A stretch of 64,000 bases of DNA from Blasia pusilla (taxonomy: Eukaryota). Below, one piece after another: positions 6,730-61,750 of the stretch. Both the position numbers and the translations under genes were made by a program. The stretch covers positions 10,106,001 to 10,170,000 of the forward strand of contig CM114271.1 of assembly GCA_050084515.1 (NCBI GenBank). The letters run 5' to 3'. How positions within the stretch are numbered: position 1 is the first letter of the stretch; every line of letters starts with the position of its first letter. Below the pieces are notes generated by a model. That model had not been told where the DNA came from. It saw only the letters and a program-made list of their open reading frames with translations, and searched no databases.

Positions 6730-8529
6730 ATTCTTTCTTGGTTGAGCAAGATACAGATTATGAGAGTTCATTCTTTATCCACTTGAGAAGATACTTTGAG
6801 GGAAATGAACATATTTTGTGTTAAGTGAAGTCGTTCTTGTTTTCTTGTTTTCTACAATATTGGGAAACTTCATGAATTATTCTTATTTATTACAAACTAC
6901 TTCTCTTTTCAGGAAAGCGTAATCTTCTTGGGGAACAAACTATATACTACTTCATCAAAAGATGACAATTTCTATTCTCTTGTACATTACATATAGAGTT
7001 GAGAATTTTTGTTCAGGATCTTACGACACTTGCAAGCATATTTGTCTCGTTCTCCAAGGTAAATTTTGGAGAATGTGCCAATCTTAAGTGATTCAAGATC
7101 CCGTGTGGTGACGAGTGCAAATCTGGTCCACGCATGGATCAACCTAGTAGTGTTGTTAGATGTGGCGTATTGTAGGTTCACATCCACATCAGCCACATCT
7201 TTGGTGGACCAACTTGGTGCCATATGAGGTGTTGTGGAGGGCTATGTGGGAGTGGAACGCCCCTCCGATTGTTGGTGGATTCTATTATAGATCCAAGTCA
7301 TCGATCATAGGCAGTGAGGTACGATGATTGACCGCCGCTGATCGTGGTCAATAGGATTGGCATGGCACTAGCAACCTTTCTCAAATTTGTGACTTTTCCT
7401 GCTTCCTATGCATACAAGAAGGCATAAATTGCTTGGTTTCAATGGTTTGGGATGAGCAGGTACAGCGGTTGGTGAAGCCCAACGCCAATAAGCGAGAGCA
7501 AGCGATGGGATTTCCCACAGGAATGACGGTAGTATTGTCACTATCAGAGGCATCATGATGACATGTCTTGGGTGAGGCAATGGACTTAAACTGCTTGACA
7601 TGGATCATCAGCTTAGGAGTCGCTGAGTAACGTCGTTTGAGATTTCGACAAGTTAAAGCTTTTGCGTTGGTGAGCCCCATGCCTACTAAGATGGTTGAGG
7701 CAATGGCTGGGGGCGGATCTGAGGAGATCTGACACACCAAGGATGATAGGGAGAGACACCCTTGGACTTCTCCGGATGTTTTGCAGATACGCCGAGAGAT
7801 ATGATGTACAACTCAAGGAAAAGGTAGTTTCTTAATCGCAAAGTATTAAGTTTGTTCCCAAGAGATCACTATTTCTTGAGAAAAGAGAGGATTTATAAGA
7901 AATATAAAGAATAATTTCTTCTTCATTGAGTAGTTCAATAGCTTCAACAACCGAGTCTTCAAACAAAACTCTTCTCAAGTGCAGAAAGGGAGTCTTGCGA
8001 GTCTTGGATACCAAAATTCAAACAAGGACCTCAAAGAGACCTCAAGAAGATTGCAGCTCACCCTACTTTCAGAACTGAATGTGTCACGGTAGGTTACTCA
8101 TTGTCTAACAACTTTCCTACTCTCTTATTGATTATTTTATGGAATTCTGAAATCAAGGACTCAAATCTCATCCCTACACCAGCCCAATAAGATTGACATT
8201 CAACTCCGCACATCAAAAAGAATGAGCGAGGACACTTCTCCTACATCAAAGAGAGGAGGAAACTAGAAAGCATTAATAGCTTCAGAGTGTACAAGGCTCT
8301 TCGGCTCAAATCATCCCTTAAAAACGCTTCTCACATAATCAACAAGAGTGCTGGGAACTCGAGACCCAAGGAATGATCACAAAGCGGAAAGATGTATGAA
8401 GAGTAGGAATAGGAAGAGTTGGAACATCTGAACCGTGAGATTAATAATTAGAAATCTACAGGGAAATAAGAAGAACCACGAATTGTAAAGAGAATATTTA
8501 AAGAGTAAGACAGAAGAGCAAGGGAACCG

Positions 8530-15400: not shown

Positions 15401-18038
15401 TCACCCCACCCATCAAAAGAAATTGATGCTATAATTGTGAGGCAACCGATCATTGGGCAAACAACTGTCCCAACTCAAAGAGACTAGTGGGGTTGAATTC
15501 ATTGTGTGGTAATTGCAAGAAGGGAGGACACACTCCAGTGGAGTGCTCGGAACCTCAAGTGCCGCGGCTCTTGGTCAAATATGTAACCACTCCACCGGCA
15601 CCAACCAAAACCAAGAATGAGGTTAATGTGCAGCTAGTGCGCGTGTGGAAGAAGTCACCACACCAAGGATGCCAAGGAAGCTGACAATGAAGGAAGACGA
15701 CCCTGTAACGAGATCGACAAAGAGTCCTCAGATTGGCCCAAAGACATTCTCAACAAGGTCTTCCCATTGGAAACCACGTCCAAGTCTAAGAAGAAGACTG
15801 TGAGAGCAAGACCCCAGAATCTTCATCTTTTGAAAGTGTTAGGTCTACGAAGAAAGCGGTTGAGACATTTCTGCGCGGGAAAGCTATTCTGAAAGGTAAT
15901 GAGGACCTAACTTTTGATCGTAATCATCCAAAGTACTTCCATCCGGAAGTAGAGGAGCAGGTCCGTAACCAAGTTCAGGAAGAACAAGCAAGGGGAGTCT
16001 TCGTGCAATGACCCTTACATAAGCACAAAGAAGTAAAAATGGAGACCTCGTTGGCTTCCCCTTTGGTGATGGAAGCTTACGACTTGCTGAAGTATTTGGT
16101 TGCCATTCCAACAAATATGCATTTTTTGCACTTACTTATGGATAATCCCATTTATGGGAAAATTCTCCAATGTTGGAAGGTTGGACGTAAGAAGAAGGCA
16201 GGAGCAAAGAAGCTCCCACTGGTGGATTTTTTCCGCATAGAAGTTGAAGACCTTGGTGTGTCGGAAGTGGAAGTTGAAATTGAAGGGCATACCATCAAGA
16301 AGGTCCCTATAGATTCTGGAAGCAGGATCAACATCATGACAGAGTAGATCGCTCAGGCTTTAGGTCACACTAAGTATGAATCCACCGATAAGTATTTACG
16401 CTTCGCGGATCAGTCTCGTAAGCGGCCCTTGGGGCAGCTGACCCAGATATCCACTATGATAGGAGGGGTTCTATTTCTACTAGACTATCTTGTCCTTTAG
16501 CCTTTGACAGTCATAGATTACCCCTTACTCATTGGAAGACCGAGGCTTTATGGGGCTGAGGTCAATTCAAATTGGAAAAGACGAAGATTCACGTTCCAAA
16601 CGCCATCAAGTACTTCCAAGAAGTTGGTGAAGTTGTCTTGGAAGTCTCGGCCGTCTCAAGGAGAGACACCTGCCATGGATGAGGGGTATACCTTGGATCA
16701 AGACCTGGCAATTGATACTGAGTCCTTGTCCTATGTGTGCTACTAGGAGTGCTATGAGATAGATGAAGAATTTCTACAATCAGAGCAAAGCAAGTCCTTC
16801 CCAAGAGAGGAGCCAACTAGGCTCACTACCTACCAATTCACGGACAAAATGGTGTAGGTAAAGGACTACCAAGAAGTCTTGATCAGCAATACTAAGGCAT
16901 TACGTTTGTCTGCAGACTTGATGCATCTAAAATTTCACTATATAAAACTTTGCTTTCGAAGTACCTTGATGTGTTTGCCTACACCATGGATGAGATAAAA
17001 GGAGTACGAGCCAAATATGGGGAGCATAGAATTGATCTAAAGCCTGGGGAAATCCCTGTGCAAATGTGGTAGTATAGATTGAATCCAAAGTATTCCTTAA
17101 TGGTCAAAGATGAAAATGATCAGAGGTTGGAAGAAGGAGTCATCTATCCGGTGCTTAGTAGTGAGTGGATGTCTCCCATAGGCATTGTTCCGAAGAAGAA
17201 GTCGGGTAAGATCAGGGTATGTCAAGACTATAGGAAGCTTAATGCGGCCACCCTGAAGGATCATCATCCCCTGCCCTTTACCGATACTATCTTAGATAAA
17301 GTGGCTGGTCATGAACGCTACACATTCCTGGACGGATATTTCGGTTACAATCAAGTGTCCATTAGAGAAAAGGACCGGGCCCTGACTACCTTCACCACAG
17401 ATTGGGGTACTTTTGCCTATCGAGTGATGCCTTTTGGCATGTGCAATGCCCTTGCCACTTTTCAAAGAATGATGATCTCTATCTTTCAGGAGTACTTGCA
17501 AAGGTTCATAGAGATCTTCTTGGATGACTTTTGTGTCTTTAGCTCGACAGCCGATCATTTGCAGAAGCTAGAGCTGAACTTGGCTTGGTGCAAAGAAGTG
17601 CAATTGTCTTTGCACTCAGAGAAGTCTTACATTGCAATGAAGCATGATATCCTATTGGGGCATCAAGTGTCTTCGCGTGGTATAGAAATGGATAAGGCTA
17701 AGGTGGAAATAATTTCAGAGTTGGAAGCTCCCATGAATCTTCATGAGCTAAGAGGATTCTGGGGGGTTCTATTGCCCGTTCATTAAGGATTATGCACTAA
17801 AGGCAAAGCCTTTAACTACCCTACTGAAGAAAACTGAGGAGTGAGAGTGGTTGCCAGTGTGTCAGACGACATTTGATGAGTTGAAGCAGGAGTTGATAAC
17901 TTCTCCTGTGCTTCGTCCTCCGGACTGGACGAAGACATTTCAAGTGTATGTAGACACCTCTTCGTTTGCCATTTGTGTAGTACTAAATCAATTAGATGAG
18001 AAGAAGAAGGATTACCTTATCTATTACGCAGGTCAGAA
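12439..18038 (+). mobile_element. 3'-truncated Athila-like Ty3/gypsy element (partial 5' LTR to ~13697, PBS, gag, PR, RT, start of RH)
   Basis: LTR homology, PBS TGGCGCTGCTGCCGTGGA (13721-13738) resembling the tRNA-Asp-type Athila PBS, and the coding motifs listed in the next feature. Confidence 0.88.
14279..18038 (+). pseudogene. gag (three CCHC-like knuckles), protease, RT, partial RNase H
   Basis: MAQPRKALLRYPTF..; CSACGTQGQTVPECP, CYNCEATDHWANNCP and CGNCKKGGHTPVECS; VPIDSGSRINIM (PR); QDYRKLNAAT..FLDDFCV (RT); QVYVDTSSFAI (RH). Confidence 0.9.
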
Positions 18039-19297
18039 ATACAATTGATAGATCATTTGGAATGATCTCAACGTGTAAAATAAATTTGCAGCATTCCCAT
18101 CGTCCTCTGAAGGGGAAATATCTCTAAAGCATGTCAATACTGATTCTAGAGAATCACACAATGTGGTCACAGCTTGCCAACGGGATAACCATCTAATCTT
18201 GTGGTATCTCTTCATAACTCGTTGGGAGTCATTGAATTTTTCTTGCAACGATGCTAGAATTGTTTTCCTCTTGGACGACCTTCTAAAGTAACCAGCTATT
18301 GCATTGAGAATCGAATCGACTTCAGAGGATATTGACTTGCAATCAGGAGCTTTCGCAGCTGACAAAGCCGCCAAAATTGTTCTATGGGCTACACAATGAA
18401 CTGAAAGAATATAGGGATTTACCTTCTGCTTTATTTGGGAGGCCACCCCTGTCTGGCTACCTACCATTGTAGAAGCTCCATTTGAACCAAATGCTACCAT
18501 TGTGGAGAATTCTAACCCTCCATCTTTGATTAGTTGCAACAAACTTTCAGTAATAGCATTGGAACATTTTGATTCGCAACGAAGTAGTCCCGGAAAACAA
18601 CATTCTGCGTGGCCCTCTTCAATGAAGGTGGCAAACAAAACCAAATGCCCTGTTACAGATATATCAGTTGACTCATCGATCATAATGCCATAGAAAGGAG
18701 AGGCTTGAACTCTCACAAGAGTTCTTCTAAACAAAACTTGGCTAATGAAGTAACACATCTCACTACAACTCTTTTCATCATGATATAAATCTCAGGTAAT
18801 AGAGGTATTGATCAATAACATTAACTTACAAAGGCTAGGAAATTAAAAAAATGGCATAGCCTCCTTCGCAAGGAAGTATGCGCACTTAAACAATGTCAAC
18901 AACGCGATTTCACAAGTGCGGTTGGTGGTGGAAACTTCTTACCCCCATGTGCAGCCCATGCAAGCTTGATGTGCTCGTTGGACTTGGCATGATCAGTGAA
19001 GGCTGAAACCTTACAGTTTATTGCGCCATCTTTGGCAAACACACTCTTTCCTTTCCCCTTCTTACAAACTTTACAAAAGATTCTACCAAGGGTTGAATCC
19101 CACTCAATCCAATCATACATCGAATATCATACATCCTTGCATGCTACACGAACTTTTCCAGGTACATTCGCACTGCTTCCTAACAAAGGCGACTCATCTC
19201 TATCATCAGATGAGTGAGACAATGCGATAATGTCACGCTCGTTATTGATTCGTTCCTTACCTAGGAAGGAAGTCATTGTCTTTTTCCTCTTGGCCAT
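18039..19297 (-). pseudogene. N-terminal half of hAT transposase (ZNF862-like type)
   Basis: N-terminal zinc finger (IFCKVC..H), YGIMIDESTD, VHCVAHR and KIRWLSR motifs, with frameshifts. Confidence 0.88.
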
Positions 19298-19898
19298 ATG
19301 CACTACTGGGCACTGGGCAACTATCTGGACTACAACATGAAAGCACGGAAGAAGGGCTACCCCACGGGAATAAGCTGGAATGGAGGAGCTGCAATGAGCT
19401 CCAAGATTTCAAAGTAAAGAGCAAAGTAAAGTGAGAGTAAAGTAAATAGTGAGCTGATAAAGAGCCCGCGGGATACGGCTAGGAGGAGGACACCCTGGCT
19501 CAAATCGAGATAAACCTTGGCCCAAATGAACATAAACCCTGGTCCAAATCGAGAGAAATCTTGGCCCTAATGGACAGAAACCATGGCCCAAATCTAGAGA
19601 AACCCTTGACCAAACAAAGAGAAACTCTGGCCCAAATTTGCATAAACCCTGAATCGCACGATGGAAAAAAAGGTGAAGTCGCGGTCGTGTCTAAACAGTT
19701 CTCAACGCTGGAAGTCCCCACCCGTAACCAAGTCGAACTAGAGAGAGTGTGAGTCTCTGAGAGCCGAGAGAAGTTGCAGCAGCTGCGCAACTTGGAGAGG
19801 CCCGCGTAAATGTAGGCGATTTGCGGAGCAGCAGAGCAAATCGATGCAAACTTGCTAAGGAAACAAAAATAAGAAATATATCCCGGCTGCTTGAGAGA

Positions 19899-20004
19899 TG
19901 TCGTGCGAATCCACATCGTCATACAACATACATCGTTGACATACCATACTCACATACGTACATAACATAGACGAGAGTATCCACAAACGCAAGTGTACCA
20001 CAAC
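19899..20004 (-). repeat. Repeat unit A, terminal copy (106 bp)
   Basis: Direct repeat of 20375-20480, with two substitutions seen. Confidence 0.95.
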
Positions 20005-20372
20005 TGAAATCCGTGAAAGACCTACTGTCATAAAACACGTTTACAATCACATACAATCGAGCCAAACCCACTCCACGATGGGAGAATCCAGGTCGAAGCT
20101 TGCGGGAAACACCATAGCCAAGAGCTCTACTCACTACCAAGGCTAACTCCCAACGCAATAGGCTCAACTCAAAGAACTGACTGTTCTTTGAGTGCACTCC
20201 ACCTTATATCCTCCAACCTAAGAGCGGGCCCTACTAGGAAACTCACCCCCAACTGAGTAACCTCCAACCCTATGTATGGAACCGCATCTCTACCAAGCCA
20301 CTACGGTCCTACATAAGGAATGACCTCTACTAGCACACTATACTCTACGACATAATCCGTATGGTCATGACA
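20005..20372 (-). repeat. Repeat unit B, 3' copy (~370 bp)
   Basis: Direct repeat of 29271-29640 with only a few differences. Confidence 0.95.
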
Positions 20373-20374
20373 GC

Positions 20375-20480
20375 TGTCGTGCGAATCCACATCGTCATAC
20401 AACATACATCGCTGACATACCATACTCACATATGTACATAACATAGACGAGAGTATCCACAAACGCAAGTGTACCACAAC
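20375..20480 (-). repeat. Repeat unit A, internal copy directly after the polypurine tract
   Basis: Direct repeat of 19899-20004. Sense AGGGGGGCGA (20490-20481) abuts it, and GC separates it from B. Confidence 0.95.
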
Positions 20481-20653
20481 TCGCCCCCCTAACTGGCGGT
20501 TAGGTCCCTCTAACTCCCAGGTAGCCCTATACATCTACTACATGCTATACACCTTCTTGGGTGCCTGAATCACAAGGCCGGGTGCTAGGTTGCCCCATCG
20601 TTAGTCGCACATCTGTAATCCATATCATGCAAAGATCAAGTCATCTACCTCTC

Positions 20654-20794
20654 CTAAGTACATCGAGGACAAACCCACCTTCCAAGAGGGAACAACATCC
20701 AAACGTGGAGTCAAACACATCATGTGCCAACCCCTAGAACACCGATCACACACCAACATACGGGTGCGTTACGTGCAGACCCACACAACATGCA
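20654..20794 (-). pseudogene. PHD finger (C4HC3) at the C-terminus of pol
   Basis: Manual minus-strand translation: CMLCGSARNAP / MLVCDRCSRGWHMMCLTPRLDVVP / GRWVCPRCT*, with two 1-nt frameshifts. It is not visible in the ORF track. Confidence 0.88.
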
Positions 20795-20799
20795 CCTCA

Positions 20800-21970
20800 A
20801 GCTAGCACGTATCATGGCTAAGCTTGGGTCAATCAGATACCATCCACATTTGGAAGATGACATGGCGCACAATTACGCACATGGTCCTTCCAAACAACTC
20901 CATCACGACCCTCCAACATGAGAACTCCAGAAGCTAACACCTCGCGCACTCATAAAATAGTGCGGCCTGCCGTCACATCCAACGTTGTCAGGGCAATCTG
21001 CTGCAAATAGACATAGTCCCCCACATGGAACCTACGAATCGATGGTCGATAACCTCCACCTCGAATGGTTGCATACCGCAACGTATCCCCTGTGTTGAGC
21101 AATGGCAAGATTCTCAAAGGTCGTTGGCATAACTCTCCGAAAGAGCTCCGCCCGTTGAGAACACACCCTCATCCACATCTCCGGGTCATCAAGGTTCACC
21201 ACCTCACTAGACTCCCGACCAATTCTTTGGCAAGTCGGATCTCGGCCGTATAATGAAAATAAGGTGAGAAGGAAGCCAAGGATGCTTGACGATCGAACCT
21301 ATACCCCATGGCTAACCATGGCAATCGAATATCCGGTCTCCAAGATGCCCTTCAGAGGCCATACTTGCGCAATGCCCTTTTCATCGCCCCGAACCACACG
21401 CTCAGCCAAACCATCCGCCCCGGATGATCTCGAGACGTGGTCCGATGATCAATCAACGCCTTGTCACACAAGACTGAAACTCATCCTGAAACTCAGACCT
21501 GGTTGGTCAAGACTTGGTGATGCACCAAAATGACTAAGCACTCTATCCAAACGCATACGCCATTCCCTCACTCGCCTTGTCCGGTAATGCCACCAACTCA
21601 ATCCACTTGGAGAAGTGCTCCACCATCACCAACACATATCGATGATGTCGTACAGTCAACGGTAACGGTCCCGCAAAGTCCACACTCCAATGGTAACCCA
21701 ACCCCATAATAGGCAAGGGGTGTAATTGTGGTGTATGGGCATTAAATGATGCCCTCACCCGGTCACAAACCATACAATGTGACACCAACTGCTGCACCTG
21801 AGTATGCATGCCACGCCACCAATCTTCGCCAAGGAGTAAGCTATACGACGCTTTACCCCAAAATGTCCCAACTCCTCATGGGCATGTCGCACAATGCGCT
21901 CTCTCTGAGCCAAATGTGGCACTACTCGTACTCTACCATCCTCCCACACGCGGAGAATATGTGTTCCCTC
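20800..21970 (-). pseudogene. Ty3/gypsy integrase
   Basis: HAHEELGHFG..CMVC (HHCC) and WSVDFAGPLP..VMVEHFSKWIE (DDE core), frameshifted. Confidence 0.9.
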
Positions 21971-23640
21971 CAATCGATACCTCTTAGCACGTTGAAGAAC
22001 ACGGTCTCGCTCCTTGGCACCCTACTGGTTCGTAGGAACTCCAACACCAACGCATCATCATGAATATCACGCTGATCCGTACCACCATCTCCAACCTTAG
22101 GATCTGAAGGCTGGCCATCTACCCTCTGACTAGAGTAAGATATCATGTGGTCCTCCATACTAGAGTCCACCCCTAACCAACATAAAAAGGCGGATGCATG
22201 CCAACCTGGCACCATCTCCTCATCAACCTCGCCATGCCATCTAGCCCTTGTTGTATCCTCTTGGCTAGTACATGGGTTCCTACTCAACCCATCAGCATCA
22301 AGGTTGGCAACTCCAAGTCTATGTACCACCTGGAAGTCATACTCCTGTAAGATAAGAGCCCACCGTGCAAGCTTCCCTGTAAGCTTGTCCGACTCCATCA
22401 ACCACTTGAGCGGTTGGTGATCAGTAACAAGGGTAAACTGGGTGCCAAACAAGTAACACCTAAAGTGTGCCACAGCCCACACTACTGCCAAGCACTCTCC
22501 CTCATATGAACTATAGCGCGACTCCGCTGCATTATTCGAACGACTTGCATAGGCCACCACAAACTCCATGTGCTCATCATCATGTTGTGTCAACACCGCT
22601 CCAAGTCCCAACCTACTCCAATCAGTGTGTAATTGAAATGGGCGCCCTCTGATAGGTCTCCTCAAGATAGGCGCCGCCACCAACTGGGCCTTAAGCTCCA
22701 CAAAAGCTCTCTCCTGATCATCTCCCCAGTGCCACTCTTGATCTGATTTCAGCAATTGGTTCAAAGGCTTTGCCATAGCACTAAATTCCTTCACATACCT
22801 CCGATAGTAGTTCGCCAATCCCATGAATGCTCGAACTCTACTCACATCTACCGGACACGGAATAAGAGCAATAGCCTCCACCTTTGCTTGCTGAACTCCC
22901 AAACCACCTGGATAGATCACATGACCCAAGTACTCAACATCCTCATGGAAGAACTTACACTTTCCTGGATGCAAACGTAGACCATGAGCTTTCAACCGCT
23001 CAAACACCATCTGCAAATATATTTGATGCTCCTCCACCGTGTTACTGAACACCAAGATATCATCAATGTAACACCGAACAAAATCCAACCCTGCTAGGAT
23101 CCTGTCCATCACTCTTTGAAACTCGGCAGGTGCATTCTTCAACCCAAAGGGTAAGAATTTCCACTGGTACAAACAATCCTTGCCATGAGAGTTGACACCC
23201 CAAAATGTTGTCTTGGCCTTGTCACTCTCCCGAATCGGCAATTGATGGTATCCTGCCCGAAGATCCAAAGTACTGAAAATCTTTGCCTGTCCCACCACAT
23301 CAAAGATCTCCTCATGTGTAGGCATGGCATACCTATCGGCCTTGGTTTGCCGATTGATAGGACGGTAATCTCCACACATCCGCCTATCCGTAGTTGCCAT
23401 GCATATCCTTTTAGCAAGCATGACAGTGGTCGATGCATACTCTCCATGCGACAACTCCACTAATCCAGCCTCCAAAAGATCCAACGTCCTACTCAATCAA
23501 GTCCTCTCCATATCACTATATCGGTAGGGACGACGGTAAGATTGGCGTATCACTAGCCAAATCAATCCGTATACCGGGTCCAACCAGAGAACCCAACTCC
23601 TTCATGCTAAAGGCAAAACAACTCCTATAAGCACGTAGGA
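21922..23640 (-). pseudogene. Ty3/gypsy reverse transcriptase and RNase H
   Basis: The 524-aa ORF contains RMCGDYRPIN, LDLRAGYHQ, LPFGLKNAP, YIDDILVFS, LHTDWS..GAVL, YEGECLAVVWAV and TDHQPL. Confidence 0.95.
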
Positions 23641-23994: not shown

Positions 23995-24940
23995 ACTCAA
24001 AATCCAAGTCAAACAATTCAGGTCCATGGCCTGACCCAACACATGACGTCGTGAAGCCTCACAAATAGAAGCAACCGTTGTCACACCAGTAGCAAATCCC
24101 ATCGCACGCTCTCTCTCATTAGTGTTAGGCTCCACCAACTGTCGCACATGAGAATCCCATACAAGCCCCGGACCACCTTCCCTGTAGGCATGTGACGAGG
24201 GAAAACTCACAAATGTGGGTAGTGCCATCCTAGGCTGGCCCACACGGTTCACCACCGCCATGGGTGACCGATCAATAACCCTCACCACTTGAGAAAGTCG
24301 CCCAAGATCAAGATACTATCCACTTTGTAAGGCGAGGATCCCGCCAGACCGCATCATATGCTCGACGTAGAACCTCCTAGGCAACAAGTTTGTCCACCAC
24401 AAGCGTGGGCGATGTGCACGCTGAGCCAACTCTTGCATCAACAACACCGCTGGTCCAATCCAAGACCGCACCTCATGAACACTCGCCATCATCTGGGTCC
24501 GAGTGTCACCCAACAATGGAACATTCTCCAGAATGTAAGCTAGAGCACGTGCCTGATGAACCTGAAGATGTCGTAACACCCGTAACATCTCCCAAAACAA
24601 TCGAGACCTAGGGTCATATAATCCCTCACCACGACCAGCACGTGTATGACCCTGACATGACCATCCAGCAATCACCAAATCCACAGGACCAATACCCTCA
24701 AAGTCCTGCGCCCCCAACAATGCAATGTGTGATGGTAAAGCACGCTGGTACCCACTAATAGCTGATGGCGGCAACAACTCAGGATACCTCCGCATCAACT
24801 GACCAATATGTCGGGATGAGACTCTCTGGGCCGTCTCATCTCGCTCCACATACACGTATCTCCGCCTGGAATACCGCCCGCAACATCAGAGCCAAACCAG
24901 TGCTAATCCCACCAAAGAGATCTAACACACAAATGCCCTC
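23995..24940 (-). pseudogene. DNMT3-like DNA (cytosine-5) methyltransferase domain within pol
   Basis: Motifs in canonical order: VLDLFGGISTG (I), YVERD (II), DLVIAGWSCQG (IV), RLFWEMLRVL (V), YILENVP (VI), AHRPRLWWTNL (VIII), ERERAMGF (IX), RRHVLGQAMDL (X). A few frameshifts. Confidence 0.92.
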
Positions 24941-25299
24941 CGCGGATCTTGCGCCATACAATGGGTGTAGTATCCAAAGGAGATAACCCAATCGGGCCAC
25001 AAGTAGGAGTCCGCCGTGGGGCCTCCTCTTCCTCGTGAGGTATAATGACCTCACACCAAGCCTCTCTGCACTAGGCGTCGCCTCTGCCGTAGTGCACCGC
25101 CTGAACTCCAAAGTGGCACATCCAACGATGAGGATGCCACTGCTGCAAAAATAGGGACCTCCTCTACCTCCTCATGCGCAGGAGAATCCATAGCAGAAAC
25201 ATTACCCTCCAAAAAGTCTCCTGGCCAAGTGACTACTCCACTAAAACCAGCCACAGATGCTAACACTGTTGGGGAAGACCCTCCTGGTCGAGCCCCAGA

Positions 25300-26299: not shown

Positions 26300-27783
26300 A
26301 GGTGGAAGCCCCTGCTCCCGAACTGATCTATCTTTGGATACCAGCCATAGTAGCCAACTTCTGCTCCAACTGCTCAATCCTGGCAGCCATAGCTGACTCT
26401 GTCGTAGTGGTAGGGGCTACCACCAGTGGTCCACCTCTACCACCCCTACCACCTCTACCACCTCGGCCTCTCGGAGCTACTCCACCACGGCCACGGCCTA
26501 ATCTCAACTCGGGATGGAGATCAAAGCAACGCTCTCGAGGATGACCTAGTCTCCCGCAATGATCACACTGAGTTGGGGCCGACTGAGGCCCATCCTCCAA
26601 AGTCCGTCTCCCATCCTCTTGGGGACAAAACTTCCTAACATGATCACCTCCACATGTCCAACATGATCGCCCTGCCGCGAGGCAAAGCAAATGAAGGCAA
26701 TGGTCTCTGCACAAATGTCCTCTAGGACTTGATCGAGGTCGCGTGTACCCCCACGACTCCCACTACTACTACCACCACCACTACTACGAGATCGTGAGGT
26801 GGGGGCGGCTGAACACGAGAAGTAGTAGTTGTATCCCTCTCGAATGCGGATGTCACCACTCTCTCCTTCACCATGTTAAGCTCAATCTTCTCAGATAGAG
26901 CAAACACATGGGTCAATGTGGGTGAATCATCACTCATAAGAGTAGCATCACGCACCCTACGGCACAAATCTCTGCCCAAGATCCCATACTAAAACCGGAT
27001 GCTCGATCCTAAGTCACACCCTGGGTAATCGAAATCAGCGTCGATACGCGTGTATGCCTCACGAAGACTCTCACCGAGTCTTTCGCTCAAAGTCCTGAAG
27101 ATTCCTCAACTTCTCCGTCTTCACTCCTTGATAATTCTTCCTCAACCTCTTGAAGAACTCGCAGAACCGGGCTAACGATGGTGGGGCACTAGTACCTCCA
27201 CTAGTACCCCCACTAGTACCTCCACTTTGGTACCCCCACTCGGCTCAGATTCGCACCACCACTCGGGTCGGGCCGGGCCGGGCATAGTAGGAGCACTACT
27301 ACCAATACCACCATGGGTGATAGACACATAGCCTGGAGACCAATATTGTCTCCATGCCTCAATCTCAGCAACATGGTCCTTCCTAGACTCATGGTAATCA
27401 TCCATAGGTGGTCCTTCCAAGTGCTGAAACAACCCCTTCCAAGCCAAGAAGGGTGTAAACAACGTGGCATTCCGCAACATCTGCATATCACACCACGTAT
27501 CAAACTCCTGCATGAAGTCCTCCAACTCAATGGTACCCACTGCACCCAAGTATCGTCGTGGGCCCTTCATGGCCCCATATCCACCGTCCATGTCCCAAAT
27601 CAATGGAGCTGCAACACTCGATAACAACGTAGAAGACTCGGTGTTTGGAACACCCTCGTCCTCCTCTTCATCAACCGTCGGAAGTGAAAAAGGTGGCCAA
27701 TACCTAAATCCACTCCGTGTGAAACCACCACTGTCCGCACCACAGTCCCCAACCAGACCACCCGACAGCTCCGTGATGACCAA
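26300..27783 (-). pseudogene. gag with zinc knuckles and RGG-rich tail
   Basis: CWTCGGDHVRKFCP, CDHCGRLGHPRERCF and RGGRGGRGG; homologous to 57660-59100. Confidence 0.82.
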
Positions 27784-29259
27784 CGCCGATGCCGCACCAC
27801 CACCAAATTACCCAAGTGACGTCGATGTCGCTCTACTATTGTAGCTCTACTAGCTATGGGTGTAGGCAATCTAACCTCTCATCACTACAAGAAGCCTCCC
27901 ACGGTCTACTGGTCATCACTCCAGCCTCACTACCGGTAGCACACAGGAGTAACACTACTCTGGAAATCAGCGTTAACCCTAACAATGGGCGCGCAAGCAA
28001 GAAGCACGATGGAGGGGATCCAAACACAGGAAGTCCAACGACAACCCTCCAACCGCAAATGAAAATCAAGGTAACACAATCCACCAAACGTGGTGCCCCT
28101 GAATCCACAAAACCCACCACACAATTCTAACGCAATAGCTACTCCGCCGTGGTCGATGACGACTAGTCGAACTCGCAAAGACCTGAAAATATCACTGCAT
28201 GGAGAGGCTACACCGTACTATGCGCTAGAGGTACATCAACCAAAAACTTGAGATGCATAAAGCGCCTAACACATCTCCGAACAAAGACCAAATGAGCTAC
28301 AACAGTCAGACATCGGCCTAGTTAAGAACTCAAAGCAATTAAGCGTCCTCCAGCAGAATAGCCCAAAGATGGGTGACCAGTTATGCAAAACTCAAATCCC
28401 AAATCCTGCAAAAATTGCCTCACGCCCAAGCAAGCAAGCTTGCTTGCTTGCTCTTTGCTCCTTACTCCGCCTCTCACGCCCACTCGCCCCGAGCTACCAC
28501 GAGTTGCCTCAAAGCCTCAAAACGCCGTGATATGCCCCGTTCGCCACGCTTCGCCATGCTTCGCTATGGAGAGAGGTCCAACCAGGGCGCCCCCAACGGG
28601 ATAGGCGTCTCCAAAAATGAACGAGTCACCAACCAACCAGCCCCTCCGATCCACTGTCCACCATAGCCAGACCTTGAGCTGTCCGCGAAATTTCGATCAG
28701 AAATTACTTCACAAATACGTGACCGAAATCAAATCTGTTTCGATCAGAATTCAATTGACCACCATAGCTATCTCCCCACAAAAACTCAGCTACAACCGAG
28801 CTCCGTGCCGAGCTAAAAATCAGACAAACTTCTTTGTCCATACACCTCTAGAACAAAATCCAATGGCGCTTCCGCCAAGTTTCATGCACGCAGAAATCCA
28901 TAACGCTCCACGCACTCGAGCAGATAGCTTCACATGAGATCACAATACAAGTAGCAATAGGAACCTCTCACCCGATCTGGATGAACTTCAACAGAGCTTC
29001 CGCACTCCAAGCTCTCCACATCGAAAAGCGTCGAACACGAACAGAATCTTCAATGCTTGATAACTTCCAACTCCCTTGACGAAATCCATCTCTGGTAGCG
29101 TTGGAAAGCTCTCAGCAAGGCGCTTCTTTCCCAACCAACCACGCACCTGATTCACACCTCCAACATAGGCAACAAGCCCCGAACATCCACGGCTGAGTAC
29201 ACAATCAGCCCTAACCAGATCCTACTGATCTACAATCGAAGCTACCATCGATCTACTCC

Positions 29260-29270
29260 AGTTCTTTGAG
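29260..29270 (-). promoter_or_regulatory. Putative self-priming primer-binding site
   Basis: Sense CTCAAAGAACT directly follows the CA end of B. It lacks the TGG start of a tRNA PBS and is the exact complement of sense AGTTCTTTGAG (29446-29436). Confidence 0.75.
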
Positions 29271-29640
29271 TGAAATCCGTGAAAGACCCTCATTGTCATA
29301 AAACACGTTTACAATCACATACAATCGAGCCAAACCCACTCCACGATGGGAGAATCCAGGTCGAAGCTTGCGGGAAACACCATAGCCAAGAGCTCTACTC
29401 ACTACCAAGGCTAACTCCCAACGCAATAGGCTCAACTCAAAGAACTGACTGTTCTTTGAGTGCACTCCACCTTATATCCTCCAACCTAAGAGCGGGCCCT
29501 ACTGGGAAACTCACCCCGAAGTGAGCAACCTCCAACCCTATGTATGGAACCGCATCTCTACCAAGCCACTACGGTCCTACATAAGGAATGACCTCTACTA
29601 GCACACTATACTCTACGACATAATCCGTATGGTCATGACA
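29271..29640 (-). repeat. Repeat unit B, 5' copy (5' LTR equivalent)
   Basis: Direct repeat of 20005-20372; sense TGTCATG...GATTTCA. Confidence 0.95.
29444..29476 (-). promoter_or_regulatory. Putative LTR core promoter (TATA plus initiator)
   Basis: Sense TATAA starts at 29476, and the A of an Inr-like TCAGTT is at 29446, 30 nt downstream. Confidence 0.6.
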
Positions 29641-31725
29641 GAGAACACAGTCCGGGAACAATGGAGGGTTGCAGCCTTTCCAAGAGTCACGGACGTGCCA
29701 CACATTGAGCAGCCCCCATACCGATCCTTAGCAGTAACGCTACCAAGCCCACTAAAAACGACCAAGCCAAGGCTGCCAAGTAGTAATGCGAGCAGCAAGC
29801 TTACAGGATTGGGAAGCACAATAGCAGCAAGACGGAGCGCCAGGAGCCAAGCTACAGAAGATTTCACAACACGAGAACCTGACGTGAGAGACAGCACTGG
29901 AGCAACAACGCGAATGACGTTTGTGAAGGTCAGAAACATGACCAGCGAGCGGTGAGAGGCAAGCTTGCATGATCCAACAGCAGCAGCAACGATACGAAGC
30001 ACTAGAACAGCAATGCGAAACTCGGGGAGAGACAGCCACTCGAACGGCAAGGCGAATGAAGATCTGAGGGGAAGAAACGCGAGCGGCGAGAGCAGCGAGA
30101 CGGAGCGTTGGGAGCGGAGACTCCACGAGTCCACAACATGCGAATGAGGCCCCCAAGGGCGCGCAGTGGGGTCTCCACCCTACTACGAGCCCCTAGGGGG
30201 ATATGGCACTTCTACTTCCAACCGTCGGATTCAGATCGGACGGCTCAAATTAGTGTGCCCTAAATGGGCTTAGGGCACACATTTGAGCGGACGGTCTAGA
30301 TCCATCAGTCTCCCCCTCATCGAATCCTCAGCGTCACTCGTACTTTTCCGGCAGCTGGCACCCCAGGCGGAATATAACCGTCCGCCGGTAAGAGCACTCC
30401 AGCCAGTAACCGGTTTCCCTACCCGGACGGCGCCACTTTTTGACGTCTTCCTGCCGGGAAACAGTCAAATTCCAGCGCCTTGTCTTTGTGCCTGACAGTT
30501 GCCAGTATCTACTCAATTTCACCCGGAACTGCTGCCGGGAATTTTTTCAAATCGTCGGAAATGTCTGAAAACTGCCGGCCGGGATTACTCATAACCTCGG
30601 ATCTCTCCGAACATTGCTACAGAAATTCCATATTTAATGGAACGAATAACATTAGAAGTCACTGAAAAGTGACGGGGCTATGGATCCTCAATAATCGTTG
30701 AAAAATCACTCGAGTGGAGTGTTGGTGGAAAGTTCAACCTTTCAGGCTCTATTCTAAGACAGATTCTTATGCCGCGTTTGACTGAGATGCCGATTCTGCT
30801 GAACCTGTTCTCGTAATTCCTACTCCGGATTCCACCGCCCCAAATCATTAGCCTGGACCACTCACTAGCTGGGTACGTACGCCACGCCGAAGTACTAACT
30901 CTTATCTTCTATTCAGGAACACAGAGCCATCGCTTGCCGGCCATTTTTTGGATGTCATGGGATTACACTTTCGTGCGGAACAATCGCTCCAGAGGAGTGA
31001 CTGACTCGCCGTTGGCAGGGTAGTCGTGTCCATCAAGTCACATTCTGGACAGCCCCGGAATAGAGACATCCGATTTCAAACCGCAGTGGTGGTACATTGT
31101 CAGTCACTTAAGTCTAACCGAGGTATCTAGCTGGGGTCCGGAATTGGCGGTAAGTCTACTTCAAGTCTTGTCACCTGGTTCCATCAACAAGAGTCATCAA
31201 ATTAAGCCTGTTTTTCTTTTAATTCCTACAATTTTGATCCCCAGCATTGTCGTTTAGTTTTGGCCCAACTCTTACCCAAATAAAGGAATGCTAGAAGCTC
31301 CCGGTGGATCGACGTGACGGCGGGCTTTCATCACTCCTGAATACAGACGCCCAGCACCCACCTAGTGCGTAAATGCGTGGAAGCATGAGACTTGTGATCT
31401 TTGACATAATTCTGCTAACAGGTGAGATCAGGAGTTGATAATCTCGATCAGAGCAAGCGAATAGTGATCCCAAAGTCATTCCGTAGTGAAAGGTTAGCAG
31501 GTATGTAATTTACTAAACCAGCCCGTGAGATTACAGAACATGTACGCTCAGAAGTCGTTTGAGAGAATCGCCATGATAGACCGCAAGAAGAAATTAGTAT
31601 GTGGTGCTGATTCTGTGTCACATAATCCTGCTCGAGTGTCACTTGTATATTCTTCCAACGCAATGTCAACTTTTGCTTTCCTCTTGGGCGGTCGCGCTCA
31701 TCGGCCAAGAGAGTAAAGAGCCTTT

Positions 31726-32805: not shown

Positions 32806-35800
32806 CAAGGTTTTTTTGAATTGTCGGGTTATTACAGGTATCATTGATATTTTTTCGGATATTCTTTTTAAGTGCATGTCGTAATAGGAATATTTGTAGC
32901 TTTTCAATTATTTTCTGGAAATTCTTTTTCTCGTCGGTTAAAATTCGAAAAAAAAAATTTCTAATTTTCTTATTTCTGGGGTTGAATTTTTTTTCTCTGC
33001 CAATTTCCGATCGAACTTTGTGAAGCTGGCCAAAAACCGACCGTTCCTAACGTGGCCGGAATTTTTTTTCTTCACACACTCCTTATATTCTCCACAACCC
33101 TGCAATGCTGAAAAACCTAATTCCTGATATCAAATTCTTCCCCTGAAGTAGACATGCAATCTTCTAGTATGCAATAAAAAATGCAATCTTCTAACACAAT
33201 AAAAGAAAATCATCCTTGACAGGAGTTGAACCTGACAGAACTCCCACCAGTTGGGAACCAAGGATCCTACCCCTCTTGAATACTTGGAGCCATGAGGCTC
33301 CAAGTATTCAAGAAGGGTCCTACTTCCTAAGACCTAAATGATCAAAGTCTTCTAATCTAGAGGGGTTTCAATAACTTCAACTTCCTCATTCGGGGAGATG
33401 TATCTATCAGGATTTGCAAACAAGTACCTAAAATGAGCAGAATTCTTCCACAATATCACAGACTCAGACAACATCTCCTCATAATCAGAGGAAGGTCCTT
33501 CTAAGGCAATCCTCAAGACAACATCTAAATACTTTGTGGTGAACCTATTACGAGATTTACTCTTGATCGTGTTTTGAATGGAAAAGGCTCTCTCACATAT
33601 GGCAGTACTAACACACTGGACTCTAGCTATATTTTCCAAAATCAACAAATTAGAAAACTTACATTGCAATGACGGACTCCAACTTACCATCGCCCACAAG
33701 TCTCTGAAGTTGCGATCTTTCCACTCAGTGGTAGCCATCAATTTGAAAGATTGGAACTCTTGCTTAACAATCAAAGAATTAATGATAGTTGGTTGCAACA
33801 CACCCCGTAATGGCAATTGATTTCCAAAAAAACCACAAAAATCATCTAAATCTTTACACCCCCAACTATTCAATCCCACTTTCCGAGAAGGCATGTGCAA
33901 AGGATTGATTATTCTCATAGATCCAATCAGGTTATTATCTCGAAATTGCTCATGTAAAGATATACACACACTTTCAGCAAACCTTTTCAGAAAGAATAAT
34001 GCATCCTCTAAGTCCCTTTCGGTCCGATCTTGAGACATAGCAATGCTATGAAACTTATTTCCCCTCATCGTGGATTGTAAACGACAAAGATAACCACCAA
34101 GTGGCCCAAAATCAAGAAGTATATGGTAACATGTATCTTTAGAGAAGGTGGAGGCATTCAAGTCATGAGTTTCCATGACAAAATTCATGGTAATCCTAGC
34201 TATCTCCGAATTCAAAATGCTCCCTATAGTGCTAATATTCACAAACTTGTACTGAAATATCTAACTCGGATTTGCAAGCATCGAAAGAATGTCAGCCAAA
34301 AAGTACACTTGATAGATCATTTAGAATGATCTCAACGTGTAAAATAAATTTGCAGCATTCCCATCGTCCTCTGAAGGGGAAATATCTCTAAAGCATGTCA
34401 ATACTGATTCTAGAGAATCACACAATGTGGTCACAACTTGCCAACGGGATAACCATCTAATCTTGTGGTATCTCTTCATAACTCGTTGGGAGTCATTGAA
34501 TTTTTCTTGCAACGATGCTAGAATTGTTTTTCTCTTGGACGACCTTCTAAAGTTACCAGCTATTGCATTGAGAATCGAATCGACTTCAGAGGATATTGAC
34601 TTGCAATCATGAGCTTTCGCACCTGACAAAGCCGCCAAAATTGTTCTATGGGCTACACAATGAACTGAAAGAATATAGGGATTTACCTTCTGCTTCATTT
34701 GGGAGGCCACCCCTGTCTGGCTACCTACCATTGTAGAAGCTCCATGTGAACCAAATGCTACCATTGTGGAGAATTCTAACCCTCCATCTTTGATTAGTTG
34801 CAACAAACTTTCAGTAATAGCATTGGAACATTTTGATTCGCAACGAAGTAGTCCCGGAAAACAACATTCTGCGTGGCCCTCTTCAATGAAGGTGGCAAAC
34901 AAAACCAAATGCCCTGTTACAGATATGTCAGTTGACTCATCGATCATAATGCCATAGAAAGGAGAGGCTTGAACTCTCACAAGAGTTCTTCTAAACAAAA
35001 CTTGGCTAATGAAGTAACACATCTCACTACAACTCTTTTCATCATGATATAAGTCTCAGGTAATAGAGGTATTGATCAATAACATTAACTTACAAAGGCT
35101 AGGAAATTAAAAAAATGGCATAGCCTCCTTCGCAAGGAAGTATGCGCACTTAAAAAATGTCAACAACGCGATTTCACAAGTGCGGTTGGTGGTGGAAACT
35201 TCTTACCCCCATGTGCAGCCCATGCAAGCTTGATGTGCTCGTTGGACTTGGCATGATCAGTGAAGGCTGAAACCTTACAGTTTATTGCGCCATCTTTGGC
35301 AAACACACTCTTTCCTTTCCCCTTCTTACAAACTTTACAAAAGATTCTACCAAGGGTTGAATCCCACTCAATCCAATCATACATCGAATATCATACATCC
35401 TTCCATGCTACACGAACTTTTCCAGGTACATTCGCACTGCTTCCTAACAAAGGCGACTCATCTCTATCATCAGATGAGCGAGACAATGCGATAATGTCAC
35501 GCTCGTTATTGATTCGTTCCTTACCTAGGAAGGAAGTCATTGTCTTTTTCCTCTTGGCCATGTGCACTACTGAGCACTGGGCAACTATCTGGACTACAAC
35601 ATGAAAGCACGGAAGAAGGGCTACCCCACGGGAATAAGCTGGAATGGAGGAGCTGCAATGAGCTCCAAGATTTCAAAGTAAAGGGCAAAGTAAAGTGAGA
35701 GTAAAGTAAATAGTGAGCTGATAAAGAGCCCGCGGGATACGGCTAGGAGAAGGACACCCTGGCTCAAATCGAGATAAACCTTGGCCCAAATGAACATAAA

Positions 35801-37164
35801 CCCTGGTCCAAATCGAGAGAAATCTTGGCCCTAATGGACAGAAACCATGGCCCAAATCTAGAGAAACCCTTGACCAAACAAAGAGAAACTCTGACCCAAT
35901 TTTGCTTAAACCCTGAATCGCACAATGGAAAAAAAGGTGAAGTCGCGGTCGTGTCTAAACAGTTCTCAATGCTGGAAGTCCCCACCCATAACCAAGTCAA
36001 ACTAGAGAGAGTGTGAGTCTCTGAGAGCCGAGAGAAGTTGCAGCGGCTGCGCAACTTGGAAAGGCCCACGTAAATGTAGGCGATTTGTGGAGCAGCAGAG
36101 CAAATCGATGCAAACTTGCTAAGGAAACAAAAATAAGAAATATATCCCGGCTGCTTGAGAGAACACAGTCCGAGAACAATGGAGGGTTGCAGCCTTTCCA
36201 AGAGTCACGGACGTGCCACATATTGAGCGGCCCCCACACCGATCCTTAGCAGTAACTCTACCAAGCCCACTGAAAACGACCAAGCCAAGGCTGCCAAGCA
36301 GCAATGTGAGCAGCAAGCTTACAGGATTGGGCAGCACAATAGTAGCAAGACGGAGCGCCAAGAGCGGAGCTACAGAAGATTTCACAAAAGGAGAACCAGA
36401 CGCAAGAGACAGCACTAGAGCAGAGACGGGTACTGGAGCAGCAACGCGAATGACGTCTGTGAAGGGCAGAAACGTGACCAGCGAGCGGCGAGTAGCAAGC
36501 TTGCAGGATCCAACAACAGGAGCTGCGATATGGAGCATTGGAACAGCAACGCGAAACTCGGGGAGAGACGGCCACTCGAACGGCAAGGCGAATGAAGATC
36601 TGAAAGGGTAGAAATGCGAGCAGCGAGAGCAACGAGGCGGAGCAGCGAGACGGAGCCTTGGGAACACAGACTCCACGAGTCCACAACATGCAAATGAGGC
36701 CTCCAAGGGCCCGTAGTGGGGTCTCCACCCCACTGCGAGCACTTGGGGGATATGCCACTTCTACTTCCAACCGTCATATTCACATCGGACGGCTCAAATT
36801 AGTGTGCCCTAAATGGGCTTAGGGCACACATTTGAGCGGACGGTCTAGATCCATCTGTCTCCCCCTCAGCAAATCCTGAGCATCACTCATACTTTTCGGG
36901 CAGTTGGCACCCGAGGCGGCAAATAACCGTCCGCCGGTAAGAGCGCTCCCGCCAGTAGTCGGTTTCCTTACCCGGACGGCGCCACTTTCTGACGACTTCC
37001 TACCGAGAAATAGTCCAATTCCGGCGCCTGGTATTTGCGTCTGACAGTTGCCGGTATCTACTCAATTTCACCGAGAACTACTGCTAGGAATTGTTTCAAG
37101 TCGTCAGAAATGTCTGAAAATTGCCGGCGGGATTACTCGTAACCCGGGATCTCTCCAAATATTG
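32806..37164 (-). mobile_element. hAT DNA transposon copy 2, complete (4.36 kb)
   Basis: Perfect 8-bp TSD TTCGGATA (32798-32805, 37165-37172), termini CAA...TTG, and a hAT transposase inside. Confidence 0.93.
33352..35561 (-). pseudogene. hAT transposase (ZNF862-like type), disrupted
   Basis: Zinc finger, DESTD, HCVAHR, RWLS and the C-terminal dimerisation motif STAICERAFSIQNTIKSKSRNR, with stops and frameshifts. Confidence 0.92.
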
Positions 37165-47296: not shown

Positions 47297-48164
47297 TGTC
47301 GCGACCCTCATGACCAAATGAGTGCCAAGCGGAACATCGGAACATTAGCGGGCTCACGCTAAGATGGTTTGCGTGTTGGAGTAGTCTCGAAGAGGAGACA
47401 AGAGACGAAACGCGAGCGAGGCTTCACGTTTCAGATGTTGTGGTCGCGACCAAGAAACCTGGACCAAACGCGGAATGAGACTTGAAAGAAGTCGAGTCTA
47501 GAAAGTGGGTTGCCAAAAGGAAGAATCCGGATTTGGAACGCCACTAGCGTTTGAGAGTTTCCGACTGTATTTTTAACCATAACTTTTAGCACCAAGATGC
47601 GTTTGGATTAAATAAGGGTGCGTTGGAAGGCTTACATAAAGCCTCTTCAAACGCACTAAAGATCTTTGCAAACGCAGGGGCAGCGGCTGAGAGAAAACCC
47701 GGAAACAATTGTAAGTGGAGTCGGGTTGAGGGCCACAATGAAGGGCCCGACCCTCCTTTTCCAAAGGGGGGGTTATTTGAGAACCCCAGAAGTACTAGTA
47801 AGGGGGAAGGTCTCCGAGAGTGCTTGGAACCCGAACGCCACTTTGGGCGCCGCGGGGCGGCTCAAGGGCATGGAAGGGAACGCGAGTTTGGGAGTTGGGT
47901 TGGAAAACCTGCACCGAGTCTATTGAGGCGATTTTAGACATCCCTCTTGGATTTCACCCCGCGACTCAATTACTTGGGTCTCGGTTAGGAACTCACACGA
48001 GGTCCGTTGAACAGTTGGGATCGCTACGCGCGCAAGTGCCATTTCAGATCCCTAGACTAACCAAGAAGTCTGTTCCAAGTCTTGAAGGACTTGCCATGTT
48101 TTGGAAACTAGGAACTAAGGAAGGTTGAGCTTGATTGACGTTCAAGGAGAGTAGGGGCGCGACA
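47297..48164 (+). repeat. Chromovirus 5' LTR
   Basis: Direct repeat of 54521-55477, followed by the PBS. Confidence 0.93.
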
Positions 48165-48313
48165 AGTGGTATCAGAGCTTATCCTTGGTGAGCGAGAACT
48201 TGGGGTCGTGGGATCAACCGAACGCTTGGGAAAACTCAAGGTAGCGGCTAGACTCAGACGCTCAAGGAGGGACGCAAGAAACGAGGAGGAGATCTGAGTG
48301 AGTTGGCTTGAAA

Positions 48314-53830: not shown

Positions 53831-54520
53831 TACGAGGAGAAGCTAGAGACATGACTTGTAACCAGTGGAATCTTGGGCTGAAGGCCGTTGTAACTAGAAT
53901 ATGCTAGTGTTGCAATAAAGGAGTGTATGGATTTGGAGATTCGATGCCAGAGTTGATTGCAATTTGTATGTGGTAGTGCATGGCTATGAGTTGTTCATCA
54001 TAGGCTTAGGATGTAAGTCAAGAGGACAGACAAGGAGTATTTGAGGTGAGAGCTCGTATGTGGATAAGCACCTAGAACAGGACCTTGTGTTGGATTACAC
54101 TCGGGCTCGCCCTAGCGTCGGCGGGGCAGATGAAGTCTGTCTTGGGGCTTGGGGTGATCTTACTTGTGGCTACATAAGTAAACTTAGTGACGCGCCTAAG
54201 TCGAATACGAGAGCGACCCAATAGTAGTACGATTTGTAGACCATGTAAATAGGTGTGATGTTTACAGGAATGAGTCAGAAGAGTCTAAGGTTGCACACTT
54301 AGTTAGCTTATTTGATAGGTTAGTTCCTTGGAACTAGTCCAAGCTTATCAAAGAGGAGAGGCTAATAATTCTAAGTGGGGCAAAGCGACAACTATAGACT
54401 AAGAGGAATTGCGGGTTAGCCACCAAAACGCAATTCAATGTCAAGGGGTAGGCTGCCCAGGAGACTTGATATAACAAAGGTTTGCGTTGATGAGGGCATC
54501 AACCTCTAAAGAGGGGTGAG

Positions 54521-61663: not shown

Positions 61664-61750
61664 TGATCCTCAATCTCTTAAGCCTATCCTCTTCTACTTG
61701 CAAAGGTGCTCTACCAGATCTCTCTGATCTATCCTAAAAAAGTGGTGACG

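Follow-up and report, generated by a model that had tools for sequence, protein, structure and literature searches.

The stretch of DNA analysed here (the window) comprises 64,000 nucleotides of Blasia pusilla (assembly GCA_050084515.1, contig CM114271.1, positions 10,106,001 to 10,170,000), and its minus strand carries, at 29640-19899, a 9.7-kb Ty3/gypsy-type long terminal repeat (LTR) retrotransposon that is now defective. Our subject is how this element and its relatives prime reverse transcription. The bounds of the element were taken from self-comparison of the window and from the junction sequences. Its target was a host repeat, of which an uninterrupted paralogue is present at 34297-37164. 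Read 5' to 3', the layout is repeat B, a segment complementary to part of B together with the internal region, a polypurine tract (PPT), repeat C, a GC dinucleotide, repeat B, and repeat C. The LTR as defined by reverse transcription has the usual unique 3' (U3), repeated (R), and unique 5' (U5) parts, and B corresponds to R, U5, and the 3' portion of U3. The features are as follows, in window coordinates.

29641..29644, minus strand: 5' copy of the target-site duplication (TSD), TCTC; the same TCTC stands at the 3' end and is single at the empty-site paralogue (36158-36162 region).
29271..29640, minus strand: 5' repeat B, 370 nt, TGTCATG...GGATTTCA; 98% identical to 20005-20372 and covered by sense-strand RNA.
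29472..29476, minus strand: TATA box, TATAA within GGATATAAGG; GGTATAAAG in the closest relatives (family F1, below), and 26-32 nt before the complementary segment in four families.
29451..29461, minus strand: U3 arm ACTCAAAGAAC, identical in sequence to the primer-binding segment; folds into a hairpin with the R start.
29436..29446, minus strand: proposed self-primer AGTTCTTTGAG, the putative first 11 nt of the transcript; exact complement of 29270-29260.
29260..29270, minus strand: putative primer-binding site (PBS) CTCAAAGAACT, adjoining the end of B; exact in 9 of the 12 distinct 5' copies of F1.
27172..27807, minus strand: gag-like open reading frame (ORF) fragment; gag matches 60-79% identical in F1 loci, with no match in Pfam.
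24316..24885, minus strand (also delimited as 24316-25171): C5 cytosine DNA methyltransferase (DNMT) domain in a broken ORF between protease and reverse transcriptase (RT); PF00145, E 4.5e-07, and at the same place in relative L066.
21922..23496, minus strand: RT and RNase H; PF00078, PF17917, PF17919.
20842..21875, minus strand: integrase (H2C2 zinc finger and rve core), frameshifted; weak Pfam matches, and tblastn with the L066 integrase.
20688..20762, minus strand: remnant of a C-terminal PHD finger; tblastn with the L066 integrase-PHD region, residues 347-371.
20481..20490, minus strand: PPT AGGGGGGCGA; AGGGGGGCGA in L041 and AAGGGGCGA in L046, directly before C, and a G run in families F2-F4.
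20375..20480, minus strand: first copy of repeat C, 106 nt, the start of U3 as defined by reverse transcription; 96% identical to 19899-20004.
20373..20374, minus strand: GC dinucleotide separating C from the B that follows, in the middle of the palindrome GACAGCTGTC; from the junction sequence.
20005..20372, minus strand: 3' repeat B; from self-comparison.
19899..20004, minus strand: second copy of repeat C, ending ...CGCACGACA, the 3' terminus of the integrated element; same layout in L041, L063, L066, and L067.
19895..19898, minus strand: 3' copy of the TSD, TCTC; from the junction sequence.

The initial annotation of this DNA had noticed that a short segment downstream of B complements a segment shortly after the TATA box, and its coordinates proved correct on the minus strand: TATAA at 29476-29472, TCAGTT with its A at 29446, and AGTTCTTTGAG at 29446-29436, with the exact complement CTCAAAGAACT at 29270-29260 directly following the end of B (29271). 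The minus-strand order is GGATATAAGG, ACTCAAAGAAC, a 5-nt spacer (AGTCA), and GTTCTTTGAGT, which contains AGTTCTTTGAG; from the AGTTCTTTGAG region a further 163 nt run on to ...GGATTTCA (ending at 29271), and CTCAAAGAACT comes next. A29446 lies 30 nt after the first T of TATAA. The motif has a third copy, not remarked on in the initial annotation, in U3, where ACTCAAAGAAC (29461-29451) can form an 11-bp stem with a 5-nt loop by pairing with 29445-29435. Two details had to be amended. The 11-nt core of the complementarity is exact as described, but the perfect match found by a repeat finder is actually 13 nt long (29447-29435 versus 29271-29259), as it also includes the A that ends B and the G that follows the 11-mer. 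Similarly, no TGG-starting tRNA PBS had been noted, but a TGG is present at 29260-29258, where it overlaps the end of the 11-mer; it is, however, not conserved in relatives and stands 10 nt from the end of B.

The complementarity in the focal copy is not a chance occurrence. When the LTR was dinucleotide-shuffled, a complement of the 11-mer was present in 15 of 20000 shuffles, and of the 8769 internal 11-mers, the 5' LTR contained the exact reverse complement for only 2, which are this site itself (offsets 0 and 1). With at most one mismatch allowed, the window contains 9 instances of the pattern where 2.48 would be expected; none of 100 shuffles reached 9. The outermost pair, 29447/29259, was considered as a case of covariation within the genome, where both positions are variable (G>A 84%, C>T 64% of DNA word depth) in a manner that would turn C:G into U:A; it was rejected, the variants being unphased and the 12th position being a T:C mismatch in 5 of the 9 F1 relatives with a readable position.

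A scan of metagenome contigs with RT alignment yielded 79 related loci, and the informative ones were sorted into four families (F1 to F4, the focal element belonging to F1) whose RT identities are 46-80%. The initial annotation had proposed covariation of the two 11-mers among diverged relatives as a check, and the outcome was favourable: the pairs differ between families while complementarity is kept in all four, each having a perfect or near-perfect complement with its LTR segment starting 26-32 nt after the TATA box. Such maintenance of complementarity while the sequences change is the covariation that this check looked for. In F1 (pair AGTTCTTTGAG / CTCAAAGAACT; LTR identity to the focal element ∼75%; 12 distinct 5' copies, with the focal copy among them), TATAAAG is kept, next comes CTCAAAGAACA, and then TAGTTCTTTGAG; the B end reads ...CATTTTCA and is followed by CTCAAAGAACT in 5' copies or by (G/A)TTGTGGTAC, which is repeat C, in 3' copies. 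The core pairs at 11/11 positions in four copies (focal, L011, L040, and L041, the same as L042), 10/11 in two (L007, L034), 9/11 in two (L027, L058), and 8/11 in one (L001, the same as L002), and the start of R is deleted in the other 3 of the 12 (L014, L020, L052); there is no consistent pairing at the 12th position. Column conservation within F1 is 0.98 over the PBS versus 0.75 in the next 20 columns and averages 0.956 over the self-primer segment (18 F1 sequences), and the U3 arm is conserved as well.

In F2 (L063, L066, L067, L068; RT ∼50% identical) the pair is AGTTTTTCTAGA(ATT) / (AAT)TCTAGAAAAACT, the latter adjoining the B end (...TTCAAT), and the LTR segment starts 32 nt after TATAAAAG. 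The core pairs at 12/12 positions in L066, within a 15-nt perfect duplex, at 11/12 in L063 and L068, and at 9/12 in L067; the U3 arm is absent. At three to four of the paired positions F1 and F2 differ on both sides, through compensatory differences. F3 (L017, RT 64%) has a 16-nt pair, GACATTCTTGTCAAGT / ACTTGACAAGAATGTC, starting 26 nt after the TATA box, and the GC-rich F4 (L075, RT 46%) has a 12-nt pair, GGCGCGAGCACA / TGTGCTCGCGCC, starting 30 nt after it. Hairpins resembling that of the U3 arm are also present in L075 and L017.

A separate line of evidence fixes the point at which DNA synthesis would begin. In the 3' copies of F1 and F2, B is directly followed by C, the sequence that follows the PPT, whereas in their 5' copies B is directly followed by the complementary segment. 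Because B|C is the joint of the U5 end with the U3 start and the 5' copy of B adjoins the complementary segment, DNA synthesis must start at the boundary of B. These junctions support the earlier proposal that the end of B is the true U5 end, and with it the permuted-LTR model. The 3' end of the primer must then pair with 29270, which gives a primer of 11 nt in F1 and 12 nt in F2 if the RNA starts at the A of AGTT. The primer of Schizosaccharomyces pombe Tf1 is 11 nt long, cut between nt 11 and 12.

Taken together, these results make it likely, in our judgement from sequence comparison, that the focal lineage primes minus-strand synthesis on its own RNA in the manner of Tf1. The genomic RNA would most likely begin ∼30 nt downstream of the TATA box, at A29446 or no more than a few nt from it; the leading 11 nt of this RNA (AGTTCTTTGAG) would fold back on CTCAAAGAACT adjoining the end of repeat B; the RNase H of the element would cut the RNA within this duplex, after nt 11; and the freed 3' OH would prime minus-strand DNA, as in S. 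pombe Tf1, with tRNA unused. Predicted RNA folds accord with the pairing step. Both the minimum free energy (MFE) and centroid structures of the focal R-U5-PBS region pair nt 1-12 with the PBS, and those of L066 pair nt 1-15 with its site, the latter fold having z = -4.05 with none of 200 shuffles as good.

Expression was assessed by aligning two of three available raw RNA-seq runs (X22 and X23, under the same species label), one contig set possibly from RNA, and one from DNA to positions 28700-29760. The family is transcribed on the sense strand: the RNA reads are strand-specific, with a pattern that fits sense RNA if the first mate represents the strand opposite to the RNA, which is the case for most stranded libraries. 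Depth was 77-186 across all of B and 3-38 in the leader, and reads spanned the B/PBS boundary at a depth of 14-29. The drop in depth between ∼29384 and 29300 points to a poly(A) site there and to a short U5. Reads that continue upstream from the start of B into GC-C (117 in X22, 147 in X23) show that transcription of U3 includes C. Near 29294, 6-7 reads per RNA run diverged toward the 3'-copy form of the B end, and the X22 consensus goes on into C. The RNA reads also contained a joint from 29319 to 29607 ("goes back 289", 4 nt shared; 4 reads in X22 and 9 in X23) that was absent from the aligned DNA contigs; 29319 is near the depth fall at the end of R and 29607 is 35 nt inside B, and the joint could come from a tandem-LTR variant, from a molecule that is circular or arose by template switching, or from an artefact of library preparation.

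Several observations weigh against self-priming in this lineage or against parts of the case for it. The focal copy is dead, with its ORFs (gag-like, DNMT, RT, RNase H, integrase) interrupted by stops and frameshifts, and its fold is unexceptional overall (z = -1.13). F3 and F4 are represented by one locus each, and in both B is preceded by C-GC and then followed by the PBS, possibly through assembly collapse. A search of 709 kb of the loci for inverted pairs of at least 11 nt with a TATA box 24-40 nt upstream returned 11 matches, only 5 of them at PBS sites of elements; the remaining 6, which comprise 3 distinct sequences, are in AT-rich DNA. ARAGORN detected no tRNA gene either in the window or among the 79 loci, the DNA to which this search was confined. 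Neither RNA-seq run showed a reported pile-up of molecule ends at 29446, at a reporting threshold of one-fifth of the local depth and with U3 depth from the 3' repeats (77-143) equal to R depth; the only start or end pile-up reported consists of 19 X22 molecules that begin at 29479, beside the TATA box (adjacent depth 89). Finally, the complementarity reaches upstream of the proposed +1 by varying extents, as a match of 13 nt in the focal copy, 17 nt in L041 and L042, and a shifted 13 nt in L027.

Some of these points bear on the position of the RNA 5' end. Because reads from the U3 of the 3' repeats reach equal depth at 29446 and the threshold was one-fifth of that depth, the RNA-seq data argue neither for nor against a transcription start site (TSS) there; a TSS near 29446 is suggested by promoter geometry and by where the complementarity begins. 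As the complementarity extends upstream of +1 in some copies, the 5' end can be placed only to within a few nucleotides, and the primer may exceed 11 nt in length. In L041 (1842-2033) and L042 (4655-4846), a near-identical F1 copy, the 17-nt match starts 5 nt upstream of the A of AGTT, which would fit a transcript starting further upstream or a longer primer copied into the PBS. In three loci (L017:8550-9040, L027:3355-3715, and L075:11450-12000) C-GC-B is followed by the primer-binding segment rather than by C, an arrangement that could be a tandem or alternative isomer, or the assembly collapse of two B copies; L075 has identical 141-nt ends, and L027 has an inverted partial B adjoining its primer-binding site. 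Other matches of the inverted-pair scan (L004; L062, L063, and L072; L068 and L071) were set aside as AT-rich or palindromic chance pairs. A scan of viral contigs with the RT ORF returned 5 pattern matches and no relative among them.

Of the alternatives to self-priming, the one that survives best, although we consider it improbable, is that the two segments form a long-range RNA stem closing R-U5 for some other use (packaging, dimerisation, control of translation, or help with strand transfer) while another primer anneals nearby. The duplex appears in the predicted folds whatever its role, the complementarity extends in some copies beyond the proposed RNA 5' end, and no pile-up of starts was seen at 29446, where reads from the 3' repeats mask the site. 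Against such a stem, the B|C junction of both F1 and F2 has DNA synthesis starting precisely where the complementary segment has its 5' edge, and no other conserved primer site adjoins B, given that conservation downstream falls to 0.75 and TGG is not conserved. Still less credible is a primer supplied by the host, whether a tRNA, a tRNA half, or another small RNA that complements CTCAAAGAACT, with the match to the LTR being secondary. Half-tRNA primers have been reported in some plant copia lineages (PMC6317226), but the four families have unrelated segments, none beginning with TGG and each matching its own LTR with the same spacing from the TATA box, so that four different RNAs would be needed. 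The reading with the least to recommend it takes the motif as a promoter palindrome located at the TSS (CTCAAAGAAC-loop-GTTCTTTGAG), its copy after B being a chance or recombinational duplicate without a role in priming. Around the proposed TSS the U3 arm and R start do make up a near-perfect palindrome in F1 and F4, and in part in F3, and 16 of 18 nt agree around the two direct copies in the focal element, yet F2 has no U3 arm and nonetheless has a 15-nt complement, F1 relatives do not share the extended direct repeat, the copy after B is the best conserved stretch of the leader, and, as with the RNA stem, the exact abutment of that copy to the U5 end is left unexplained.

Self-priming, the reading that we prefer, is described for Tf1 and its relatives (PMC4600332; PMC6317226). 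The focal lineage resembles Tf1/Tf2 and the Tf1/sushi group (Tj1, Maggy, Skippy, sushi-ichi) in having a PBS after the LTR that is complementary to the transcript start (here a putative one), with the duplex closing R-U5, and the U5 boundary implies a Tf1-like primer of 11-12 nt. In contrast to that group, it lacks a chromodomain and has a PHD finger after the integrase, it has a DNMT between protease and RT, its repeats are split and permuted, and in three of the four families a U3 arm is able to sequester the start of R. Among plants, the survey of Neumann et al. (2019; PMC6317226) reports self-priming as predicted for Tcn1 chromoviruses of mosses and clubmosses and for TAR Ty1/copia elements, 12% of the elements surveyed; it reports various tRNAs as the primers of non-chromoviruses, which it did not find in algae. 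Tcn1 and TAR are like the present elements in being plant LTR elements without a tRNA-type PBS for which self-priming is predicted from sequence, although by domain content the focal lineage is neither.

A closer counterpart is KnitGypsy-Dnmt3 from Klebsormidium nitens, reported as a Gypsy-type Pol with an embedded Dnmt3-like DNMT and DIRS-type repeats in the order A-coding-B-A-B (de Mendoza et al., 2018; PMC5890265). A C5-DNMT within gypsy Pol is shared by the focal element and L066, and the A-coding-B-A-B layout by the focal element, L041, L063, L066, and L067; the host here is a liverwort. The phrase "primer binding" is absent from the main text of that paper, which does not describe priming, a PPT, TSDs, or a palindromic junction. 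The name KnitGypsy was found in none of the other papers searched, and among those retrieved for gypsy elements with split direct repeats and an integrase, none dealt with such an element judging by its title or the opening of its abstract. DIRS, Ngaro, and PAT elements likewise have split direct repeats (A1-internal-B1-A2-B2), but the focal lineage differs from them in having a DDE integrase (H2C2 and rve) and 4-bp TSDs, and no match to a tyrosine recombinase domain was found in the scanned ORFs of the focal element and L066.

The coding content places the lineage further. The RT-RNase H ORF is 82% identical to its top match, 80% identical to a protein named for the liverwort Calypogeia fissa, and 45-63% identical to proteins of Marchantia, Closterium, and Klebsormidium; Klebsormidium proteins appear among the RT matches at 45-54% identity. 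The DNMT domain is also carried by the relatives L066 and P0084. In L066 the integrase is followed by a PHD finger (PF00628, E 2.9e-10; L066:12620-12778) in place of a chromodomain, for which the Pfam scan of L066 gave no match, and the integrase-PHD region aligns by tblastn across F1-F4 and to the focal remnant. The description of the element as a gypsy without a chromodomain was therefore apt, the integrase C-terminus bearing a PHD finger throughout the lineage. Conservation of this finger suggests that integration may be targeted through the reading of histone tails.

The repeats are informative about the LTR itself. PBS and PPT together define an LTR of the form C-GC-B, and the DIRS-like layout is therefore a circular permutation of an ordinary LTR. 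Relative to C-GC-B, integrated copies are permuted as B-internal-C-GC-B-C and end at the palindrome ...ACA|GC|TGT..., which was found with at most two mismatches in 22 of the 79 loci. TSDs of 4 bp flank 4 of 4 complete copies (focal, TCTC; L041, AAGG; L066, GGTC; L067, CCAA). At the C/B junction of the focal element (20366-20380, minus strand), the two halves of the palindrome GACAGCTGTC(A/G)TG are the termini of the integrated element (TGTCATG...CACGACA), and the palindrome resembles the junction of a retroviral circle, here incorporated in the LTR. It is possible, although we advance this only tentatively, that integration proceeds from a U5-U3-joined form (a 2-LTR circle or concatemer) rather than from the linear product of reverse transcription, with the precise B|C junction, present at every 3' end, being the joint and the DDE integrase cutting the internal palindrome, and that self-priming and a U3 "anti-primer" hairpin masking the 3' copy of the primer belong to the same adapted cycle. 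The route from integration to permutation, by way of a joined intermediate cut at the palindrome, would be the more novel part of the proposal.

Other repeats surround the element. At 47297-55314 on the plus strand lies a different gypsy-type LTR element (LTR pairs 93-99% identical; RT identity to the focal element ∼31%). At 48167 it carries TGGTATCAGAGC, which we take to be the canonical plant PBS for initiator tRNA-Met; on that assumption, tRNA priming is in use by neighbouring elements. Further diverged fragments of DNMT-bearing gypsy elements, with 40-70% protein identity to the focal ORFs, occur at 55646-58934 (minus strand) and at 7-331, 7009-7801, and 61744-63952 (plus strand); they are nested among other repeats, and none has a recognisable 5' LTR and PBS. 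The one at 55646-58934 encodes gag, protease, and DNMT, and the region upstream of it (58900-60100) held no inverted pairs of at least 10 nt. Pairs at 60579-60750, considered for comparison, were rejected as lying within an unrelated AT-rich repeat. The host repeat that the focal element interrupts is ∼2.9 kb long (18034-19898 plus 29640-30616), and the intact paralogue is 4 kb away; one side of the repeat is 98% identical to that paralogue and the other only 87%, an asymmetry that might reflect gene conversion or a composite repeat.

Self-priming in this lineage would represent a known mechanism in a lineage for which, to go by the reports cited above, it had not been described, whereas the DIRS-like layout is already in print for KnitGypsy-Dnmt3. 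The mechanism is established for Tf1, and its plant predictions are limited, in the survey cited (PMC6317226), to Tcn1 and TAR. Its occurrence in a separate streptophyte lineage, one with a DNMT and a PHD finger, would mean that tRNA-independent priming is more widespread or arose more than once. Moreover, because the PBS and PPT reveal the layout to be a circular permutation of an ordinary LTR, the question of whether a DDE integrase can use an LTR-LTR junction as its substrate becomes testable in a plant family that is still transcribed.

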